Below the pieces are notes generated by a model. That model was not told the origin of the DNA. It saw only the letters and a program-made list of their open reading frames with translations, and did not search any database. Shown here one piece after another: positions 7,274 through 28,244 of a stretch of 40,150 nt of DNA (position 1 is the stretch's first letter; every line of letters begins with the position of its first letter). The stretch lies in the IMG/VR virus record IMGVR_UViG_2718218304_000002, one strand, 5' to 3'. A program made the translations under genes and the position numbers. Source of the stretch: a virus (taxonomy: Duplodnaviria > Heunggongvirae > Uroviricota > Caudoviricetes).

Positions 7274-7705
7274 ACGACAATGTCACGCTACGGGTAAATG
7301 GCCGGGAGTGGAATGGCTGGACATCGGTGCGCATCGGTGCCGGTATTGAACGGCTGGCGCGGGATTTCAGTGTGGAGATCACCCGCCAGTGGCCGGGTGA
7401 TGAGGGTATCACCACGCTTCAGCCGCGCATTAAAAACGGTTCAAAAGTGGAAGTGCTGATTGGTGATGAGCTGGTGATCACCGGCTGGGTGGAGGCGACG
7501 CCCGTTCGTTACGATGCCCGTTCGGTCAGCACCGGTATTGCCGGACGTAGTCTGACGGCTGACCTGATTGACTGTGCAGCCGAACCGACACAGTTTAACG
7601 GACGCTCGCTGGTGCAGATTGCGCAGGCGCTTGCTGCGCCTTTCGGCATTGAGGTGGTGAACAGCGGTGCGCCGTCGGGTGTTATTCCTGATGTTCAGCC
7701 TGATC
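7270..7705 (+). pseudogene. Mu P (gp44) / P2 D-like tail protein, N-terminal ~145 codons, truncated by IS66
   Basis: Start overlaps N-like stop (ATGA). Native reading ends ...GVIPDVQPD at 7705, where the IS66 terminus GTAAGCG begins; the rest of ORF 7270..7827 is IS sequence. Confidence 0.6.
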
Positions 7706-7742
7706 GTAAGCGTGCAGCAAGAACCGTATTGACGGGGATGTG

Positions 7743-9280
7743 TTATTCAGTCGGCAGTGCTACGCGCCAGGGGAGCAGTTCGCCGACCCGGTTTATCGGC
7801 CAGTCGGCTATGACGTCAAGGACATAGCGGAGGTAGCTTTCTGGCTCCACTCCGTTCAGTTTGCACGTCCCGATCAGGCTGTACAGCAGCGCTCCCCGCT
7901 CTCCTCCATGATCCGAACCGAAGAACAGGTAGTTTTTGCGGCCCAGACTGACCATCCGCAACGCATTTTCAGCGATGTTATTGTCCGCCTCAGCCCAGCC
8001 ATCATCTGCATAGTACGTCAGCGCCGGCCACTGGTTCAGGGCGTATGCGAACGCTTTCGCCAGTTCTGAGTGTCGCGACAGGGTTTTCATCTTTTCACGC
8101 AGCCAGCTTTCCAGGGATTTCAGCAGCGGTTTCGTTTTCAACTGACGTTCGGCAAGGCGCTGCTCCGCCGTCATTCCCCTTATCTCTGCCTCGATGGCGT
8201 ACAGTTCGCCGATCCGTTTCAGCGCTTCCTCCGTCAGGGCTGACGGGGTGCGAACGTGCACATCGTGGATTTTACGGCGGGCGTGAGCCCAACAGGCGGC
8301 TTCCGTTATCCGGCCATCCCGGTACAGCTCGTTGAACCCGGCGTATGCATCCGCCTGCAGTAACCACTGAACCCCGCAAGATGGGTCTGCGGATGGATGC
8401 CTTTTCTGTCCGGGCTGTAAGCGAACCACACCGCCGGCGCCAGCGTTGACCCGGCGTTACGGTCGTCACGAACGTAGGTCCATAACCGCCCGGTCTTCGT
8501 TTTCTTATTGCCTGGCAACAGCACCGGGACAGGCGTGTCATCAGCATGGAGCTTACCGTCAGTCAGCACATAGTCCTGAAGCGCTTCTTCCAGCGGTGAC
8601 AGTAGCCGGCAGCATGCATCCACCCAGCCCGACAGCAGTGAACGACTCAGCTCCACGCCCTGGCGGCCGTACATTTCAGACTGGCGGTACAGCGGGGTGT
8701 GCTCTGCATACTTTGAGATCAGCACGCGGGCCAGCAGCCCCGGTCCTGCGATACCCCGCTCGATGGGCCGTGAAGGCGCGGGGGCCTGCACGATGGCATC
8801 GCACTGAGTACAGGCATGCTTTTCACGTACAGTCCGGATAACCCGGAAGGCGCTGCGCATCAGCTCCAGCTGTTCGGCGGCATCCTCACCCAGATAGCTC
8901 AGCGAGCCTCCACATTCCGGGCAGCATGACGCTGCCGGCAGCAGCCGTTTTTCATCGCGGGGGAGTGATTCGGGGAACGGTTTGCGGGTGCGGGTTTGAC
9001 GCAGCGGGCGCTGCACGGCCGGGTCGTCAACCCGACCGGTAAGGGTATCACTTTCTTTCTGAAGTGCCTTCAGGTCAGCTTCCATCTGTGCGATACGACG
9101 GGAGACTTTTTCCGAGCGGCTGCCGAAGTTCATCCGGCGCAGCTTATCCAGCTGTGCCTGCAGATGGTCTATTTCGCGTTCACGCTCGTTCAGCTTTTCC
9201 TGCAGGGCACGGTTCAGCGCCTCCTGTTCGGCAAGGAGACGTTTCAGTGCATTGATATCGTCAGGAAGTGAGCTGCTCAT
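7743..9280 (-). pseudogene. IS66 transposase TnpC, split by a frameshift
   Basis: N-terminal ORF 8306..9280 and C-terminal ORF 7743..8429 overlap in different frames; frames switch near 8360 (...GFSGY / LQADAYAGF...). One added base would restore a single ~510-aa ORF. Confidence 0.8.
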
Positions 9281-9328
9281 ACCGGGTATATTACCAGGCT
9301 CATTCAGCGTCGACCAGGATAAAGAGGC

Positions 9329-9676
9329 TTACAACATAGTCAGGGACGTAAGCAGTCTTTTAGGCTGCCGCCAGTCGATACCTTCCAGCAGCATCGCCAG
9401 CTGTGCCGGTGTGAGGAACACTTTGCCATCCCGGGCTGACGGCCAGGCGAAGCGGCCGCGCTCCAGCCGTTTGGTCAGCAGACACAGTCCATCGCCGGTA
9501 GACCAGAGGAGCTTTACCTGACTGCCATTACGCCCACGGAAGATAAAAACGTGACCTGACATCGGATCGTCTTTCAGCGTCGTCTGCACCTTTGCCGCCA
9601 GGCCGTTGAAGCCGTTTCTCATATCGGTGATGCCAGCGACCAGCCAGATCTTTGTCCCTGATGGTAATGGGATCAA
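9329..9676 (-). CDS. IS66 accessory protein TnpB (Orf2)
   Basis: 115-aa ORF recognised as IS66 Orf2-like; overlaps tnpA stop (ATGA). Confidence 0.8.
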   Translation of the reverse strand: MIPLPSGTKIWLVAGITDMRNGFNGLAAKVQTTLKDDPMSGHVFIFRGRNGSQVKLLWSTGDGLCLLTKRLERGRFAWPSARDGKVFLTPAQLAMLLEGIDWRQPKRLLTSLTML

Positions 9677-18704: not shown

Positions 18705-19100
18705 CTAACCTCGCATGTCAAAGCCAGATTTCTGAAAATCTCTGTAGACTTCCGGATTGTTGAAGGCCGGAAATTTGGCTTTATGAGCTGCGGACTTTAT
18801 CGCTTCGCAATAGGCTTTATCACCGTTACTGGTAGATATTTTTAACGCCGTGCCATCCTGAGAGAATTCCATATGCAACCTGCATTTTTTCCCTTTCCAG
18901 TTATGCGGCTCATCAAGTTTGGCATTAATTGCAGCTCTGATTCCCCGCGCTTGCGCCCCCCATTCATCCTGATCATCCCAGCGTCCTGAACTGCAACTAC
19001 CTGTAGCAGTAGTTTTGTGGCAATCTGAAGGGTGTAAAGGTGTGCATCCCGCAACAAAACCGACCCAAAAAGTCAACATAACGATTTTCTTTAATCCCAC
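18705..19100 (-). CDS. Lipoprotein with TolA domain-III-like C-terminal domain (paralogue 2)
   Basis: 131 aa; signal peptide with lipobox VAGC; C-terminal ~85 aa align with the recalled TolA C-terminal domain (GKKCRLHMEFSQDG / YCEAIKSAAHKAKFPAFNNPEVYRDFQKSGFD). Confidence 0.6.
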   Translation of the reverse strand: MGLKKIVMLTFWVGFVAGCTPLHPSDCHKTTATGSCSSGRWDDQDEWGAQARGIRAAINAKLDEPHNWKGKKCRLHMEFSQDGTALKISTSNGDKAYCEAIKSAAHKAKFPAFNNPEVYRDFQKSGFDMRG

Positions 19101-19250
19101 TTCTTGCTCCTCAATCCATTAAAATCTCAGCAATAGTAGTTGTTACGTCCGCCACTGGCTCAGAGCTGACTATCCGCTAAATTTAGCTCAGTGCCGTAGC
19201 TGTGTCAGAACAAACCTAAGCCGAAACCGTTTATTACAAAACAATAAATA

Positions 19251-19679
19251 TCAGGGTTTACAATCCAGCACCCCATTTTGAAATACTTTATATACTTCCG
19301 GCGAAGGGGGGGCAGGTATATCAGCATTCTTTATCGCATTCATCGCTTCACGACATAAATCGAGGTCTCCACTTTCTCTTTTAACCTCCAGTAGAAGGCC
19401 ATTCGGAGCCATATGCATTCTCAGTGTACACTCTTTTCCTGAATACTTACTCGCATCCCCGAACTGTTTTTCGATGGCGCTCTTGATTTGATGGGCATAC
19501 AGACGGATATCCTCACTAACATCAGAAGTACGTTCAGATGAACTCACATACTGTGTCTCTATTGCTTTATCGGAGTAATATGATGTACGGTCATGATAAT
19601 TTGTCGATACAGCATCAGTGCACCCGATAATAATCCCACTAATAATCAACGTAAGAATTGATGCGCTACGAAAACCCAT
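19251..19679 (-). CDS. Lipoprotein with TolA domain-III-like C-terminal domain (paralogue 1)
   Basis: 142 aa; lipobox IIGC; C-terminus YAHQIKSAIEKQFGDASKYSGKECTLRMHMAPNGLLLEVKRESGDLDLCREAMNAIKNADIPAPPSPEVYKVFQNGVLDCKP closely parallels recalled TolA domain III (YAGQIKSAIESKFYDASSYAGKTCTLRIKLAPDGMLL...IPKPPSQAVYEVFKNAPLDFKP). Confidence 0.65.
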   Translation of the reverse strand: MGFRSASILTLIISGIIIGCTDAVSTNYHDRTSYYSDKAIETQYVSSSERTSDVSEDIRLYAHQIKSAIEKQFGDASKYSGKECTLRMHMAPNGLLLEVKRESGDLDLCREAMNAIKNADIPAPPSPEVYKVFQNGVLDCKP

Positions 19680-22603: not shown

Positions 22604-23942
22604 CATAAGCGCTAACTTAAGGGTTGTGGTATTACGCCTGATATGATTTAACGTGCCGATGAATTACTCTCACGATAACTGGTCAGCAATTCTGGCCCAT
22701 ATTGGTAAGCCCGAAGAACTGGATACTTCGGCACGTAATGCCGGGGCTCTAACCCGCCGCCGCGAAATTCGTGATGCTGCAACTCTGCTACGTCTGGGGC
22801 TGGCTTACGGCCCCGGGGGGATGTCATTACGTGAAGTCACTGCATGGGCTCAGCTCCATGACGTTGCAACATTATCTGACGTGGCTCTCCTGAAGCGGCT
22901 GCGGAATGCCGCCGACTGGTTTGGCATACTTGCCGCACAAACACTTGCTGTACGCGCCGCAGTTACGGGTTGTACAAGCGGAAAGAGATTGCGTCTTGTC
23001 GATGGAACAGCAATCAGTGCGCCCGGGGGCGGCAGCGCTGAATGGCGACTACATATGGGATATGATCCTCATACCTGTCAGTTCACTGATTTTGAGCTAA
23101 CCGACAGCAGAGACGCTGAACGGCTGGACCGATTTGCGCAAACGGCAGACGAGATACGCATTGCTGACCGGGGATTCGGTTCGCGTCCCGAATGTATCCG
23201 CTCACTTGCTTTTGGAGAAGCTGATTATATCGTCCGGGTTCACTGGCGAGGATTGCGCTGGTTAACTGCAGAAGGAATGCGCTTTGACATGATGGGTTTT
23301 CTGCGCGGGCTGGATTGCGGTAAGAACGGTGAAACCACTGTAATGATAGGCAATTCAGGTAATAAAAAAGCCGGAGCTCCCTTTCCGGCACGTCTCATTG
23401 CCGTATCACTTCCTCCCGAAAAAGCATTAATCAGTAAAACCCGACTGCTCAGCGAGAATCGTCGAAAAGGACGAGTAGTTCAGGCGGAAACGCTGGAAGC
23501 AGCGGGCCATGTGCTATTGCTAACATCATTACCGGAAGATGAATATTCAGCAGAGCAAGTGGCTGATTGTTACCGTCTGCGATGGCAAATTGAACTGGCT
23601 TTTAAGCGGCTCAAAAGTTTGCTGCACCTGGATGCTTTGCGTGCAAAGGAACCTGAACTCGCGAAAGCGTGGATATTTGCTAATCTACTCGCCGCATTTT
23701 TAATTGACGACATAATCCAGCCATCGCTGGATTTCCCCCCCAGAAGTGCCGGATCCGAAAAGAAGAACTAACTCGTTGTGGAGAATAACAAAAATGGTCA
23801 TCTGGAGCTTACAGGTGGCCATTCGTGGGACAGTATCCCTGACAGCCTACAAAACGCAATTGAAGAACGCGAGGCATCGTCTTAACGAGGCACCGAGGCG
23901 TCGCATTCTTCAGATGGTTCAACCCTTAAGTTAGCGCTTATG
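22604..23942 (+). mobile_element. IS186 (IS4 family), intact, 1,339 bp
   Basis: Terminal inverted repeats CATAAGCGCTAACTTAAGGGTTG at 22604 and its reverse complement ending 23942; single transposase ORF; flanked by a 10-bp direct repeat. Confidence 0.9.
22659..23771 (+). CDS. insL: IS186 transposase
   Basis: 370 aa from MNYSHDNWSAILAHIG..., matching recalled IS186 InsL; IS4-family signature ...YRLRWQIELAFKRLK. Confidence 0.9.
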   Translation: MNYSHDNWSAILAHIGKPEELDTSARNAGALTRRREIRDAATLLRLGLAYGPGGMSLREVTAWAQLHDVATLSDVALLKRLRNAADWFGILAAQTLAVRAAVTGCTSGKRLRLVDGTAISAPGGGSAEWRLHMGYDPHTCQFTDFELTDSRDAERLDRFAQTADEIRIADRGFGSRPECIRSLAFGEADYIVRVHWRGLRWLTAEGMRFDMMGFLRGLDCGKNGETTVMIGNSGNKKAGAPFPARLIAVSLPPEKALISKTRLLSENRRKGRVVQAETLEAAGHVLLLTSLPEDEYSAEQVADCYRLRWQIELAFKRLKSLLHLDALRAKEPELAKAWIFANLLAAFLIDDIIQPSLDFPPRSAGSEKKN

Positions 23943-23964: not shown

Positions 23965-24120
23965 TTACTCCCCAAGTTCGTAAGCTGTGAAGACAGCGAC
24001 CTCCGTCTGGTCGGTTCGGATTCGTACCTCGCAGAGGTCTTTCCTCGTTACCAGTACCGTCACTATAACGGTTAAACAGATGACGATCAGGGTGATTAAC
24101 ATCGCCTTTTGCTGCTTCAT
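23965..24120 (-). CDS. hok: Hok/Gef-family type I toxin (51 aa), with in-frame upstream mok-like extension to 24177
   Basis: MKQQKAMLITLIVICLTVIVTVLVTRKDLCEVRIRTDQTEVAVFTAYELGE matches recalled HokD/RelF-type toxins; ORF 23965..24177 adds 19 upstream codons; the leader upstream (- strand) has a hok-type 5' hairpin (GAGGCTATCTGCC...GGCAGATAG). Confidence 0.8.
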   Translation of the reverse strand: MKQQKAMLITLIVICLTVIVTVLVTRKDLCEVRIRTDQTEVAVFTAYELGE

Positions 24121-24168
24121 AGCCCGCTTCTTCTTGCCTTTCAGCACGTAAGAGACTAACCTACGTTT

Positions 24169-24235
24169 GTAAGGCATAGATTGGGCCCCAGATTAATGTT
24201 AAGCCTCTTGCCGGATGCGTAATATCAACTGGGAC
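24169..24235 (+). ncRNA. Putative Sok-like antisense RNA (approximate ends)
   Basis: On + strand, opposite the mok start: -35 TTGCCT (24134-24139), 17-bp spacer, -10 TAACCT (24157-24162) give a start near 24169. The 3' end is not defined. Confidence 0.3.
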
Positions 24236-24694
24236 TTTTTCTATCTGCCTTTGGTTTTCATGCCCAAGGCAGATAGCCTCAAGCCCCCGCAGCCATACTA
24301 TTTAACCCCCTTTACTTCGCCAATATGAAATCAATCAGAAAGGCGATCCATAAGAACAATAGCAAGACAATAAATTGCCACCACAGCCGCAATAGCCAAC
24401 GCACACTTGAGAACCAGCACGACAACCTCCTGTATTGGACGTGCACCTGCCCTGATAAATATGAGGCTGTCTCGTCAGTGATTCAATACAACTATTGGGT
24501 ATAGTTTCTGTGATTTTGTTCTGTAGAAATGGAATACAACAACCAGTCACTACCAGCACTTCTTTAAATACGCCAAGTCCGACGGAAGCCAACATCTAGT
24601 CTGCTTTGAACGAGGAGCTAACTTTGGTGTATATAGAAACATAATCACTACAGGTAGTTCCGAAAAAATTTCTCTATCGTGATACTTGCTGGTT

Positions 24695-25744
24695 TTATTT
24701 TAATCTCTGTAATTTTTTACGCAGAGCATTAACTCGTCTCTGAACCCCTATTTTTGGATTAAAGCTCAAAGCTTTTTCATAGGCATCAAGAGCATCACTA
24801 AAGTTACCAAGTAAATCATTTGCTTCACCTTTGATGCGAAATGCGGCTGCAGCCCAGTCAGTTCGGTCTTTCGCTCCTTCATTAAGAGCCATTTCAATTG
24901 CTTTCAATGCTTTTTGAGCATTCTTCTCACTGGGATGTTCTCTTAAAAGCGCTCTCGCGGCCTCTACTTTAAGGTTGAAATTTCCTTTATATAGACAAGC
25001 ATCTTTATACGCTTCCACGTCAATGGGAATACCGATGGCAGTGTATCTGAAGTATCCAATATTTTTGCATTTCACTTTCAGCGATCTTAGCCCCCCATTT
25101 TCATCGAGATCGAAGAAATAACTATCAGCCCATCCATACTCAGGTTTAATGGAAAATATTGTTGTTTTTGACCACAGATTTATTACCTCAAGGATATTTC
25201 CATCTTTACCGGGCGCTGCGGCTGTCTGAACCGATGCGTATTTACCACAATGAGAAATTCCGATATTATAGATATTTGCTTCATAATGACGTCTAAACTT
25301 TTCATTTCCTTCAACATCAATAGCAATCAAATCAGCTTGCAGCGCAGAACCAAATCCAGCGTCATGAACAATATAATCACCTGTGTCAGCGACAGCAGCA
25401 TTAAATGGTCGGGCAATAGTTCTGAGCTTATGAAGGATACGAAAAGTTGGTTTATTAACTAAAACAACTGTTCCAAATCCACTTTCCCGGTGCCCTCCCC
25501 TTCCATTGCCATCAAAGTCACTACAGCCTACAACCCAATGTTTGTTTGCAGACAGATACGCCTGTCCAAAAAAATAAGGAGAATCAATAGTAAGCCAATC
25601 GTTTTCGATTGATATATTTCCGTTTTGTTTCTTGAGTTTAGGAGTTATGTTAGCTGTTAACTCATGCAAACTTGAAGGCGTCATTGTTTTTGCAGAAGTT
25701 ATCCTGGAGGTAAGCAAATTGAATAGTTGTGAAATAAATCCCAT
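24695..25744 (-). CDS. Hypothetical protein with C-terminal TPR-like repeats (349 aa)
   Basis: AT-rich ORF; AGGAG 9 nt upstream of ATG; C-terminal ~100 aa form TPR-like helical repeats; N-terminal ~250 aa unrecognised. Confidence 0.5.
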   Translation of the reverse strand: MGFISQLFNLLTSRITSAKTMTPSSLHELTANITPKLKKQNGNISIENDWLTIDSPYFFGQAYLSANKHWVVGCSDFDGNGRGGHRESGFGTVVLVNKPTFRILHKLRTIARPFNAAVADTGDYIVHDAGFGSALQADLIAIDVEGNEKFRRHYEANIYNIGISHCGKYASVQTAAAPGKDGNILEVINLWSKTTIFSIKPEYGWADSYFFDLDENGGLRSLKVKCKNIGYFRYTAIGIPIDVEAYKDACLYKGNFNLKVEAARALLREHPSEKNAQKALKAIEMALNEGAKDRTDWAAAAFRIKGEANDLLGNFSDALDAYEKALSFNPKIGVQRRVNALRKKLQRLK

Positions 25745-26122
25745 TTATAAATACTCCTGAGTAGCTTTTTTAAAACGTTGGCACTTATATGGCCCTCCGT
25801 GGACAAAGTGGATCCAAAAATGTCCATTCTATCTAAGGCCAGACGAACGTTCTGGTTGAAAATCTGAGTATCGCTTCGTCGCTAATTCGCCGTTAGACAT
25901 ATTTAACCACTTTTAGCAAAAATATGCACATTTTTCATCCAAGAAAACAAAAAATCGCCATCCGCAACAATCTGCTTGTTTTCGTTAAATTTTGACAATC
26001 ACGCCTTTTTCTTCTCGGCAGAGCTGAAAAATGCTAAAGTCGTATCTGGGTGGATTAATCGTATACATGGGAAAAGTAGATACGGAAGAAAGGGGAAAAG
26101 TAAAAGGTAGATGCAAAAGAAA

Positions 26123-26155
26123 GGTCCGCTTTGAGCGAGGAGCGGACTTGTTAAT
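26123..26155 (-). terminator. Rho-independent terminator candidate downstream of the GmrSD-like gene
   Basis: Hairpin GTCCGCT-(10 nt)-AGCGGAC followed on the - strand by CTTTCTTTT. Confidence 0.4.
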
Positions 26156-26271
26156 ATCGAGCCTATCTCGTAATGATATAATTGAAGACATGTTGTAGGC
26201 CTAGCAGGATATCCATGACTCATCAAACTGTCAGTAAAACATCCCACTTACGCCTATGTTTTATTGATAGA

Positions 26272-27954
26272 TTAACCAATTTTCCATACATTTACTGCTT
26301 GTTCCGACATCCATTTTTGAAAATCATTGACAGCCTCTAAATTCCATTCAGGATACTGTGTAATCTTAGCCGCTAATTTATACTTTGATTTTCCATATTC
26401 ATTTTTCTTCACTTCAAATGAAGCTCTTTTTAGATTATCTTTATCCATCAAAACCATATTTCCTAACCTATCCTTTACGTCATTAACCCCCTCCCCAAAC
26501 GAATTGCACCACCCCTTCTCTGGGTTAAATGGACAAATATGTTCGAGTGTAACTTTTTCATGATCGCAATTATTACCAAGATATTGTTCAATTTCAGCCA
26601 AGAGAAATCTAATTTTTTTGGCTGTTTGTCTACTTGGCATTCGATGAAATTCAAAAGCATTAAAGAACACGTTATCATCAGGATATAACCTCTTAAACTC
26701 CTCCCCATTTTTCACATTGCTAGCTCTCTTGTATTCCTTATTGGAGATCTTAATCGCAATTTGATTATACATGCTTTCTTGTTCACTTGGTGATAAATGA
26801 CAAATAACATTGTATCTAATTGATAAAATATATAAATAACGAGTCAGGCTGACGAACTCATCTGGATTGAATTGATTAAAAGCTGATAGCAATACTGTTA
26901 ATGGCTGTCTAATATTAAAGAGTCTAATGCCGTTCAGATAATGAATGGCCTTCTTGTATTTAGTATCTTGCTCTGCCCACCATGAATCATTCGGGTTAAT
27001 CAATGATGCATAAATAGGTGCGGAATTTATCAGTGATCTTAAATAATCGTATGCTTCTTTAGGGGTTGTAATTACTTTTCTCATTGAAGTGTATAAATTA
27101 TTTTTTGTGACCATTTTTCTATGAGAATTATGATGATACCTAATGTAATCAGAAACATTGCTTTCTCCCAACTGATCGATAATCTCCGACCATTGCTCAT
27201 CTAACTCATCTAATTCCTCATCTCCGATTTTCTCATCCTTAGTTACTATCGAAAACAAATAGTTTTTTAAGAGATCTGGCGTGGATAACTGGACTCCTCT
27301 CGCATTTAAAGTTTCAAATACTTTGTATGCATTTAAATCATCTTGAACAACTATTTTTGTAAAAACCATACTCGAAGAAAAATCGGCAATAAACTGTGCG
27401 ATCTCAGCGCCGGTATTACCGAACTCCTTCTTTTGGAAAAAATCAAAGCATTTCTTGAGTAGCTTATTTGTAGATGTAGTTCCACGAGTATTAGGAGCTT
27501 CTAAGTTTGAACAGATGCTTTGAAAATATCTTTTATTATTTCTATTTAAATCTAGCTTGCTAACCACCTTTAATGAAACGAAGTTTTTGTTACCCACAAA
27601 TGTCTTTGTTATTGCATCAAGTCGCTCTGTGTTTTGTTCAACCTCCTCTCCTTTATCTATCAAGTTTTTAATGGCTTTCATGGCTGCTAGAACTATAATC
27701 GACAAGGTTACTAATCGTTGTTGACCGTCAATGACCTCATGTTGATACTGTTCTTTTTGTTGAAGAACTATATATCCCATATAATGAAAACCTTCATCAT
27801 CAAGTGCTGTAACATCACTCCAAAGGTCCTCCCATTGTTCTACATCCCAAGCATAGTCTCGCTGGAATCTAGGAACAATGTACTTATTTGACCCTCCAAT
27901 TAATTCATTGAAGTTCTCATTTTTTGGTTCCATTAACATAAACTGTTTGGCCAT
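26272..27954 (-). CDS. GmrSD-family type IV restriction endonuclease-like protein (DUF262 + DUF1524/His-Me finger)
   Basis: 560 aa; N-terminal DUF262 motifs (YIVPRFQRDYAWD, VIDGQQRL) and C-terminal His-Me motif (TLEHICPFNPEKGW...N...N); very AT-rich coding sequence. Confidence 0.75.
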   Translation of the reverse strand: MAKQFMLMEPKNENFNELIGGSNKYIVPRFQRDYAWDVEQWEDLWSDVTALDDEGFHYMGYIVLQQKEQYQHEVIDGQQRLVTLSIIVLAAMKAIKNLIDKGEEVEQNTERLDAITKTFVGNKNFVSLKVVSKLDLNRNNKRYFQSICSNLEAPNTRGTTSTNKLLKKCFDFFQKKEFGNTGAEIAQFIADFSSSMVFTKIVVQDDLNAYKVFETLNARGVQLSTPDLLKNYLFSIVTKDEKIGDEELDELDEQWSEIIDQLGESNVSDYIRYHHNSHRKMVTKNNLYTSMRKVITTPKEAYDYLRSLINSAPIYASLINPNDSWWAEQDTKYKKAIHYLNGIRLFNIRQPLTVLLSAFNQFNPDEFVSLTRYLYILSIRYNVICHLSPSEQESMYNQIAIKISNKEYKRASNVKNGEEFKRLYPDDNVFFNAFEFHRMPSRQTAKKIRFLLAEIEQYLGNNCDHEKVTLEHICPFNPEKGWCNSFGEGVNDVKDRLGNMVLMDKDNLKRASFEVKKNEYGKSKYKLAAKITQYPEWNLEAVNDFQKWMSEQAVNVWKIG

Positions 27955-28244
27955 ATAATTGGAATCCTCTACTTTTTTAAAATTAATTTCATGCCTAAAT
28001 TAAATGGGTTCTTGCATGATATATACTGCTAATAATTATCTTGACACTTCAGGGCCACTCTTTACCACCTTTACCGATAAAATAATACAGCATTTGTTTA
28101 AGTAATGTCCGCAGCTGGCACAAAGCAGGCAACCACACTAGTTCTACCCTGTACCATAAAAATGTCAATTTACATATGAACCAATGCTATTTAAACTAAA
28201 AATACCTATAAATGCAGCATGATTCACTGATAAAATGCCAATAT

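Follow-up and report, generated by a model that had tools for sequence, protein, structure and literature searches.

The stretch analysed here, referred to as the window, is the whole 40,150-nucleotide IMG/VR record IMGVR_UViG_2718218304_000002, which represents an E. coli Rac-type lambdoid prophage integrated beside ttcA. Our study focuses on an AT-rich insert located between its replication genes and the hok locus, where two genes are encoded on the minus strand: one for a 560-amino-acid (aa) nuclease of the GmrSD family (26272..27954) and one for a 349-aa protein with tetratricopeptide repeats (TPR) that no sequence model recognizes (24695..25744). Both open reading frames (ORFs) were found exactly where an initial annotation, made from the sequence alone, had placed them. 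The same annotation described a strongly AT-rich block, and the GC content in sliding windows bears this out, with 0.33-0.40 over about 24.4-28.2 kb and approximately 0.50 on either side; the value is 0.362 for positions 24619-28226, 0.342 for the GmrSD gene and 0.390 for the TPR gene, compared with 0.467 for the whole window. The genes upstream of the insert (DUF977, DUF1627 and the ydaV/ydaU replication genes) and downstream of it (hok and sok) are likewise those expected from the proposed location. The further reading of the block as cargo of foreign composition, placed at the replication/nin junction, is supported as well.

The segment 24300-28300 is 99.9-100% identical to the chromosomes of E. 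coli strains D9, D4, SE11 and others. In the SE11 copy, one flank is a DUF977 gene that closes the ydaS/T/U/V replication module, and the other consists of the nin/Q-like genes DUF1367, DUF1364 and DUF1133, beyond which the lysis, trkG and head genes are found. Comparison with other prophages delimits the insert to about 24599-28130, with its left limit at 24599/24618 and its right limit at 28101/28130: the homology of the hok-side backbone, which is present in 1839 genomes, stops at 24618, and that of the replication side, as seen in the comparison loci L016 and L017, stops at 28101.

The 560-aa protein has the domain order of the GmrSD family. Pfam GmrSD_N (PF03235, DUF262) covers residues 16-234 (E 1.7e-37, 129.9 bits against a cut-off of 33.2) and GmrSD_C (PF07510, DUF1524) covers residues 424-551 (E 1.9e-17, 63.8 bits against a cut-off of 23). 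The motifs that the initial annotation had read from the translation are present, with PRFQRDY at residue 28, DGQQR at 76 and EHICP at 471, and the GN of the His-Me finger lies at 498, within LGNMVLM (497-503). The PADLOC model for HEC-06, PDLC04154, aligns with nearly the entire protein (E 3.8e-221; residues 1-559 to profile positions 1-566 of 569), phrog_21165 also matches it, and a sequence search of the PDB found one solved relative, the DUF262 protein 9jfl_B (E 1e-17). Residues S46, Q79, R80, E471 and H472 of the window protein have numbering identical to the residues mutated in the HEC-06 study (Payne et al., bioRxiv 10.1101/2024.01.29.577857). In that study, HEC-06 as a single gene reduced the plaquing of several coliphages; protection disappeared with the DGQQR substitutions Q79A and R80A and with the EHICP substitutions E471A and H472A, whereas S46A left it unimpaired. 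According to the same source, HEC-06 and BrxU share 23.7% identity over a coverage of only 11% and protect against different ranges of phages. A later paper refers to HEC-06 as reported to block T4 infection; its authors challenged a 22%-identical Bacteroides homologue with T4-GT7 as well as T-even phages and assigned it to the modification-dependent antiphage nucleases.

Neither RLFDS nor the more permissive R.F[DE]S motif occurs in the 560-aa protein, and its neighbours are prophage genes, with no BREX genes nearby. The initial description as a GmrSD/BrxU-type nuclease is therefore correct with respect to the family and incorrect with respect to the BrxU type; its profile match and motifs place the protein in the validated HEC-06 subfamily of GmrSD-family nucleases. 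We are highly confident that the cassette carrying it encodes an HEC-06-type nuclease that would restrict phage DNA on its own. By homology to the tested members, the DUF262 domain with its DGQQR motif would hydrolyse nucleotide, and the DUF1524 His-Me finger with its EHICP motif would cut the incoming phage DNA, which would protect the lysogen without a cognate methylase. By analogy with these members, the target is most likely hypermodified T-even DNA.

The 349-aa protein presents a different picture. Its best Pfam match is a single TPR_1 repeat at residues 301-331, whose 25.7 bits are below the cut-off of 27.8, and searches of Pfam, PADLOC, PHROGs, NCBIfam and, with phmmer, the PDB returned only TPR noise or designed TPR proteins. 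The name YfgM, given by PGAP in some records, was discarded: no YfgM model of Pfam or NCBIfam matches at E up to 1, and the protein has no transmembrane (TM) anchor. In the literature, we found no paper naming WP_000505828 or WP_001118594 and no report of a propeller-TPR defence gene. A confident AlphaFold model (pLDDT 87.2, pTM 0.79), computed from an alignment of 37 sequences, shows residues 1-40 as disordered except for a short helix at 5-10, followed by 17 beta strands between residues 44 and 235 and by six helices between 243 and 348 that adopt the helix-turn-helix repeat fold of the TPR type. The predicted architecture thus consists of an N-terminal amphipathic helix (approximately residues 2-12), a disordered linker (to approximately 40), an apparently four-bladed propeller-like domain (44-235) and three TPR-like hairpins (243-348). 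Four blades closed by N-terminal strands would fit the strand count of the model, from which we infer the closure of the ring. Structural matches of the beta domain are generic WD40, PQQ and YVTN propellers with query-normalised TM-scores of at most 0.4, and neither the Pfam scan nor the model contains a NACHT, NB-ARC or similar NTPase. The Pfam scan and the model agree with the initial description of an unrecognised N-terminal domain followed by C-terminal TPR-like repeats.

The family of this protein is conserved over its full length. Close relatives, which form 44 clusters at 90% identity, come from Pectobacterium, Serratia, Morganella, Burkholderiales, Achromobacter and Aeromonas, and an exhaustive profile search of 1.84 billion representative sequences retrieved 285 clusters (50% identity) at E <=1e-30 and 1080 at E <=1e-10, the representatives of which are nearly all stand-alone proteins of 300-350 aa. 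The family, with at least 285 clusters at 50% identity, is unannotated and has no Pfam, PADLOC or PHROG model. Among 137 members with 24-45% identity to the 349-aa query, the best-conserved residues are S65, R112-P113, G122, D128, N157, S164, G167, Q173/T174, D181, Y209, Y234, D242, K331 and G333.

We next consider whether the two genes belong together. The initial annotation allowed that they might be independent, and in this respect it was right. Among 5426 E. coli genomes, of which 30-31 carry the islet, the GmrSD and TPR genes always occur together (31 and 32 genomes); since all copies are at least 99% identical and lie in the same prophage, this co-occurrence represents a single acquisition. 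The TPR gene belongs to an independently mobile cassette of 1.2 kb (24599..25800, minus strand) that recurs with 89.3% nucleotide identity in L071, a phage-like metagenome contig with Arc, Bro-N and ANT genes, and with 85.3% in L002, a Pectobacterium island where the cassette adjoins AlpA and DUF6387 genes. The homology in these two loci begins at 25800/25775 and is confined to within approximately 55 bp upstream and 97 bp downstream of the ORF. A tblastn search detected no GmrSD homologue within 8 kb on either side in any of 52 other TPR-family loci (51 from outside E. coli, plus the E. coli locus L015), and there is none among the called genes of L057, L071 and L072. Two viral contigs with a 79%-identical GmrSD gene contain no TPR gene, which is weak evidence given their short downstream flanks. 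Taken together, tblastn of both proteins, comparison of the islet DNA and the viral contigs from the GmrSD side gave no linkage, and co-occurrence of the two genes was not found outside the E. coli islet among the loci screened. The argument that co-location with the GmrSD gene marks the TPR protein as a defence component is not supported; the two are separate cassettes that co-occur only in one near-clonal E. coli islet.

The E. coli carriers also contain each gene in inactivated form. The TPR gene is broken by the insertion sequence IS1 in PSJ-16 and LR-03, and the GmrSD gene is broken by IS1 or a frameshift in W409, OY754416 and OY754389 and truncated in LR-45 (genomes with single-gene inactivation: NZ_AP027632, NZ_AP027474, NZ_CP122499, NZ_OY754416, NZ_OY754389 and NZ_AP027532), which suggests that the two genes are dispensable and independently selected. 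Each gene has a good Shine-Dalgarno sequence, and the 527 bp between them include a hairpin followed by a T-run. The GmrSD gene is preceded by an AT-rich leader (27955..28106, minus strand) with the Shine-Dalgarno sequence GAGGA and a weak promoter-like site at 28111-28082 that may act as a promoter. The TPR gene is presumably transcribed from a promoter within a spacer of 323 bp (25801..26123), in which there is no convincing ORF and no homology to any of the loci fetched for comparison. The initial proposal that each gene has its own terminator or promoter is supported by the hairpin and T-run at 26124-26147 after the GmrSD gene, but not by the promoter scan, in which promoter-like matches were no more common than in shuffled sequence (16 found, 13.3 expected). 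On this evidence, the insert is very probably made up of two cargo cassettes that are independent of each other and occupy a prophage hotspot.

A 24-bp palindrome, GTCCGCTnnTnGCnCAnAGCGGAC, brackets these cassettes and exists in two flavours, with 'GGCACA' inverted on the replication side and 'CGCTCA' on the hok side. A degenerate 'GGCACA' copy, GTCCGCAGCTGGCACAAAGCAGGC, matching 16 of 19 specified positions, lies at 28107..28130 (plus strand) and marks the replication-side boundary of the insert. An intact 'CGCTCA' copy, GTCCGCTCCTCGCTCAAAGCGGAC, followed by CTTTCTTTT, occupies 26124..26147 (minus strand) at the boundary between the two cassettes, where it forms the terminator-like hairpin mentioned above, 125 bp past the GmrSD stop codon (7-bp stem, 10-nt loop, -10.5 kcal/mol, z -2.4, then the T-run). 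A degenerate 'CGCTCA' copy, GTTAGCTCCTCGTTCAAAGCAGAC, lies at 24599..24622 (minus strand), at the junction of the TPR cassette and the hok-side backbone; because the backbone homology begins at 24618 and the cassette homology ends at 24598/9, this element constitutes the overlap of the two. The degenerate copies fold poorly. In shuffled windows, 0.05 bracket matches are expected per window. A further copy is found at 19147-19170 (plus strand), between two small ORFs located between the Q-like and lysis genes (18705-19100 and 19251-19679, both on the minus strand), which are TolA C-terminal-domain proteins in the SE11 annotation and may be morons acting on the Tol system.

The same element occurs in at least 120 IMG/VR contigs, several of which contain inverted pairs 0.6-2.5 kb apart. 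At the place equivalent to 28107-28130, L016 and L017 have a copy matching all 19 specified positions, and inverted pairs flank the cargo in L016 (7299/9515), in L017 (7298/8991) and in L071, where copies lie at 52/1286/1320/2723 and an inverted pair encloses the TPR gene alone. Other copies are located in L063 (5122/5801/7153), L193 (92-115) and L199 (3001-3024). The cargo between the DUF977 gene and hokD differs from prophage to prophage: L017 carries a RelA/SpoT-domain protein matching the PADLOC candidate PDC-S33 (7553-8578, minus strand), and L016 carries two adjacent proteins of 333 and 320 aa (7436-8437 and 8453-9415, both on the minus strand) that have no PADLOC match and are further candidate cargo. 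The interval between the replication genes and hok is a variable cargo hotspot of lambdoid prophages.

The bracket extends beyond lambdoid prophages. In P2 it separates the variable genes from gpFI. The GenBank record of P2-EC46 annotates a 'left' and a 'right inverted repeat' for the Z-region, whose inner ends are exactly the bracket sequence, arranged in the same way. Z/fun is one of the two P2 hotspots known for anti-phage genes (Rousset et al., PMC9122126, citing Nilsson et al. 2004). The element may serve for cassette exchange, may be a terminator carried along with morons, or may do both.

The TPR family is located mainly in prophages, in islands and beside CBASS, toxin-antitoxin or helicase-nuclease genes. 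In Morganella prophages, a family member occupies the slot equivalent to that of the window, after Dam and Lar genes and before DUF1367, with no GmrSD gene. In a Pandoraea prophage the gene adjoins SocA/Panacea, and in Achromobacter it lies near AbiEii. Its two neighbours in Serratia fonticola encode a NACHT-like protein of 2138 aa and a protein whose Pfam matches are weak for Mrr_cat and faint for an OLD-like TOPRIM. The order in one Burkholderiales integrative island is integrase, Gp49/HI1420 toxin-antitoxin pair, DUF2026, TPR gene, CBASS operon (SAVED, Trip13-like AAA, HORMA, SMODS), HTH/M78 and Mrr-helicase. At other loci, the gene directly upstream encodes an SNF2-Mrr_cat protein, an SF1 helicase (in one case fused to REase_MTES_1575) or a ResIII helicase, and the alphaproteobacterial homologues adjoin HTH-M78, HipA and Toprim/DUF7146 genes. 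Among the 122 nearest neighbours at 35 further loci, the commonest families include CBASS effectors and CapP, PDC-S05, PDC-S06, HipA, RhuM, AbiEii, integrases and Toprim primases.

No recurrent large partner emerged from these neighbourhoods, since the seven large same-strand upstream proteins are mutually unrelated (NACHT-like, SNF2-Mrr, SF1 helicases, ResIII, a DUF11 surface protein and a Dyp-like protein). A DUF2026 gene, whose product is a predicted papain-like cysteine peptidase (PMC10318531), lies approximately 90 bp upstream and on the same strand as the TPR-family gene in L010 (7271-7909), L013 (7260-7907), L014 (2515-3162) and L022 (7283-7921). These loci are Burkholderiales and Sphingobium islands with copies 88-100% identical to each other. 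DUF2026 was rejected as an obligate or general partner, being absent from the window and from the remaining loci, and may be a lineage-specific one.

Two features of the family bear on where the protein acts and what it is coupled to. The N-terminus, MGFISQLFNLL, is amphipathic, with a hydrophobic moment of 0.45 over residues 2-12 that only 2% of shuffled sequences reach, and, of 190 family members, 63 retain the motif MG[FL][FLI]xx[LF][FL] at the N-terminus, among them distant relatives (MGFFDFFFKK, MSLFDFIFGKKK). In 9 of the 190, a true N-terminal TM helix takes the place of this motif, and the positive charges that follow the helix would put the module in the cytoplasm. The N-terminal motif resembles the membrane-targeting sequence of MinE, and the 349-aa protein is probably tethered to the membrane by its amphipathic helix. 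Among the best 150 family representatives, a few carry the module fused to other domains. P0123 (672 aa) combines two N-terminal TM helices, the module and a C-terminal VRR-NUC domain in what is a single gene on its contig (L057, 6001-8019); P0176 also joins the module to VRR-NUC, P0139 joins it to an RNase_T exonuclease and a BRCT domain, and P0151 joins it to a Cys-rich, zinc-finger-like tail. Repeated coupling to predicted DNA-cutting effectors is typical of modules that act in recognition or as adaptors in conflict systems, and the fusions say nothing on what the stand-alone proteins do.

Our overall reading, which we consider somewhat more probable than its negation, is that the insert contains two stacked single-gene cassettes, the HEC-06-type GmrSD nuclease and a membrane-held propeller-TPR exclusion or defence factor that would act alone. 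The cassettes would be stacked in the lambdoid slot between the DUF977 gene and hok/sok and delimited by the 24-bp palindrome. In this reading, the 349-aa protein would be a scaffold for protein binding, anchored by its N-terminal amphipathic helix on the cytoplasmic side of the inner membrane. A phage or host protein would be bound there through the surfaces of the propeller and the TPRs, and the scaffold would function as a prophage-borne exclusion or defence factor, with the same module hard-wired to a nuclease in a few relatives. Taken separately, an anti-phage or exclusion role of this kind for the TPR protein is tentative, and we place it a little short of an even chance. It stays a plausible defence candidate because the family recurs in prophage cargo slots and defence islands and has nuclease-fused relatives.

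Several results weigh against this reading. The 349-aa protein matches none of the PADLOC-DB 2.0 families, defence or candidate, at E up to 1, has nothing meaningful in PHROGs or NCBIfam, and finds no tblastn match in 50,697 sequenced phage genomes. It has no TM segment (maximum 19-residue hydropathy 0.98), no signal peptide, no Walker or P-loop motif and no recognisable effector domain, and its conserved residues are mostly blade-periodic, which led us to reject them as an active site in favour of a structural repeat signature. The association of the family with defence genes is qualitative, and the homologues in the Aeromonas locus L012 and in L072 lie among ordinary metabolic genes. Membrane tethering draws on a sequence pattern and on the analogy to the MinE N-terminus; the fusions are rare, approximately 4 in the best 150 representatives, with confirmation on a contig for P0123 only. 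The palindrome may be merely a shared terminator rather than a recombination site, and the substrate of the window nuclease is one that we infer from relatives, of which HEC-06 and BrxU differ in phage range. The 349-aa protein is put forward as a candidate.

The alternative that survives best is that the TPR protein has no immune role and is a lysogenic-conversion or housekeeping scaffold, for example for an envelope, division or secretion complex at the membrane, carried as a moron. It would explain a protein made of interaction domains with no effector and no match to defence models, the homologues that lie among metabolic genes or near type VI secretion genes, the TolA-like morons in the same prophage and an N-terminus like the membrane-targeting sequence of MinE. 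It accounts poorly for the recurrent positions beside CBASS, toxin-antitoxin systems, PDC candidates and nuclease-helicases, on integrase-bearing islands and in prophage slots of Beta-, Gamma- and Alphaproteobacteria, for the nuclease-fused relatives, and for the patchy, mobile distribution of the family; we regard it as rather unlikely, though a serious competitor. It is very improbable that the beta domain is a small enzyme of the propeller-hydrolase kind or a ligand-binding receptor, with the effector function residing in the protein itself, which might for instance sense a small molecule or break one down. The conserved polar residues R112, D128, N157, Q173/T174, D181 and D242 do lie in inter-strand loops, and the relative P0104 has a weak SGL/gluconolactonase-type match (E 5e-4), but the conservation follows the blades with an S-x-x-G-x-Y/F type of pattern, as in YVTN-like structural repeats, no enzyme family matches significantly, and the structural matches are the generic, low-scoring propellers described above. 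Least probable of all, and only barely credible, is a single two-component system in which the TPR/propeller protein senses for, regulates or localises the GmrSD nuclease, since the adjacency of the genes on one strand, their constant pairing in E. coli carriers, the nuclease fusions and the large nuclease or helicase genes often found beside TPR-family genes are outweighed by the single acquisition behind that pairing, the solitary movement of the TPR cassette with no GmrSD neighbour in the 52 other loci, the single-gene activity of HEC-06 (10.1101/2024.01.29.577857), the gap with its hairpin and T-run, the inactivation of either gene alone, and the heterogeneity of the adjoining nucleases, which is that of any defence island.

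Returning to the two stacked cassettes and their membrane-held factor, a more ambitious joint reading can be formulated, which we hold to be doubtful. According to it, the 349-aa protein would found a new and widespread single-gene anti-phage or exclusion family, a miniature propeller-TPR sensor tethered at the inner membrane face by the amphipathic helix, or by a TM anchor in some relatives, that would intercept a phage component at entry; the VRR-NUC and DEDD fusions would cut the incoming DNA at the membrane, and the palindrome would be an integron-like exchange site between P2-like and lambdoid hotspots.

The remaining features of the region belong to its surroundings. The conserved prophage backbone 3' of the insert (23965..24618, minus strand) comprises the hok toxin ORF (23965-24177), the sok RNA (24115-24288; Rfam RF01794, 92 bits) and their upstream region. 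Within it, the segment 24302-24618, approximately 320 bp between the bracket element and sok, is about 90% conserved in the 1839 E. coli genomes and is also found, unannotated, in the records of phages Evi, Tritos and mEp460; it contains an ORF for a Cys-rich protein of 86 aa (24335-24595, minus strand). Between the nin-type genes and hok, an ORF for a 372-aa transposase-like protein (22653-23771, plus strand) apparently belongs to an insertion sequence; in SE11 this place is taken by an IS3-family element. A sub-threshold Rfam match to CRISPR-DR25 inside the TPR ORF (24901-24926; 26 bits against a gathering threshold of 36) was dismissed as chance.

These results differ in what they contribute. 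The GmrSD half of the insert amounts to a further prophage-borne example of a GmrSD-like defence that is already validated, and it adds little. The TPR family, compact, conserved and unannotated, provides a concrete single-gene anti-phage candidate that is cheap to assay. The bracket is shared by the lambdoid slot and P2 Z/fun, a relationship partly anticipated by older work on P2, and it points to a common exchange mechanism for the lambdoid and P2 hotspots. It also offers a sequence handle for harvesting cargo cassettes, and with them new defence candidates, from thousands of enterobacterial prophages.

Among the known systems, HEC-06 is the counterpart of the window nuclease, which resembles it in the full-length PADLOC match, the order of domains, the DGQQR and EHICP motifs, the five residue positions, the lack of RLFDS, and its occurrence as a stand-alone gene with no methylase; unlike HEC-06, the window gene is prophage cargo in the Rac replication-hok slot and is not inside an Hma system. 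With Eco94GmrSD/EcoCTGmrSD and BrxU, the nuclease shares the DUF262 and DUF1524 architecture, the His-Me finger chemistry and the presumed targeting of modified phage DNA, but the sequence similarity is distant, and the BrxU RLFDS motif and neighbouring BREX genes are missing.

The slot is comparable to the Z/fun and old/tin hotspots of P2-like phages (Rousset et al. 2022), which are also variable places in temperate phages filled with alternative anti-phage genes, and with Z/fun it has in common the 24-bp bracket and its layout, with GGCACA inverted upstream and CGCTCA downstream. It differs from the P2 hotspots in lying in a lambdoid prophage of the Rac type, between the replication genes and hok, and in containing two stacked cassettes with an internal copy of the element.

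For the TPR protein, the comparison is one of domain kinds. The beta-propeller-nuclease defence protein that Vassallo et al. obtained by screening the E. coli pangenome (10.1101/2022.05.12.491691) also has a propeller as its presumed recognition module, and relatives of the TPR protein are coupled to VRR-NUC, a nuclease of the PD-(D/E)xK type; however, that protein combines a 7-bladed propeller with an N-terminal Mrr nuclease, whereas the window protein has approximately four blades, three TPRs, an amphipathic N-terminus and no nuclease, and we claim no sequence relationship between the two. The STAND/Avs sensors with TPR or WD40 arms use the same kinds of repeat domains to sense phage proteins; compared with them, the 349-aa protein is far smaller and has no NTPase, oligomerisation or effector domain.

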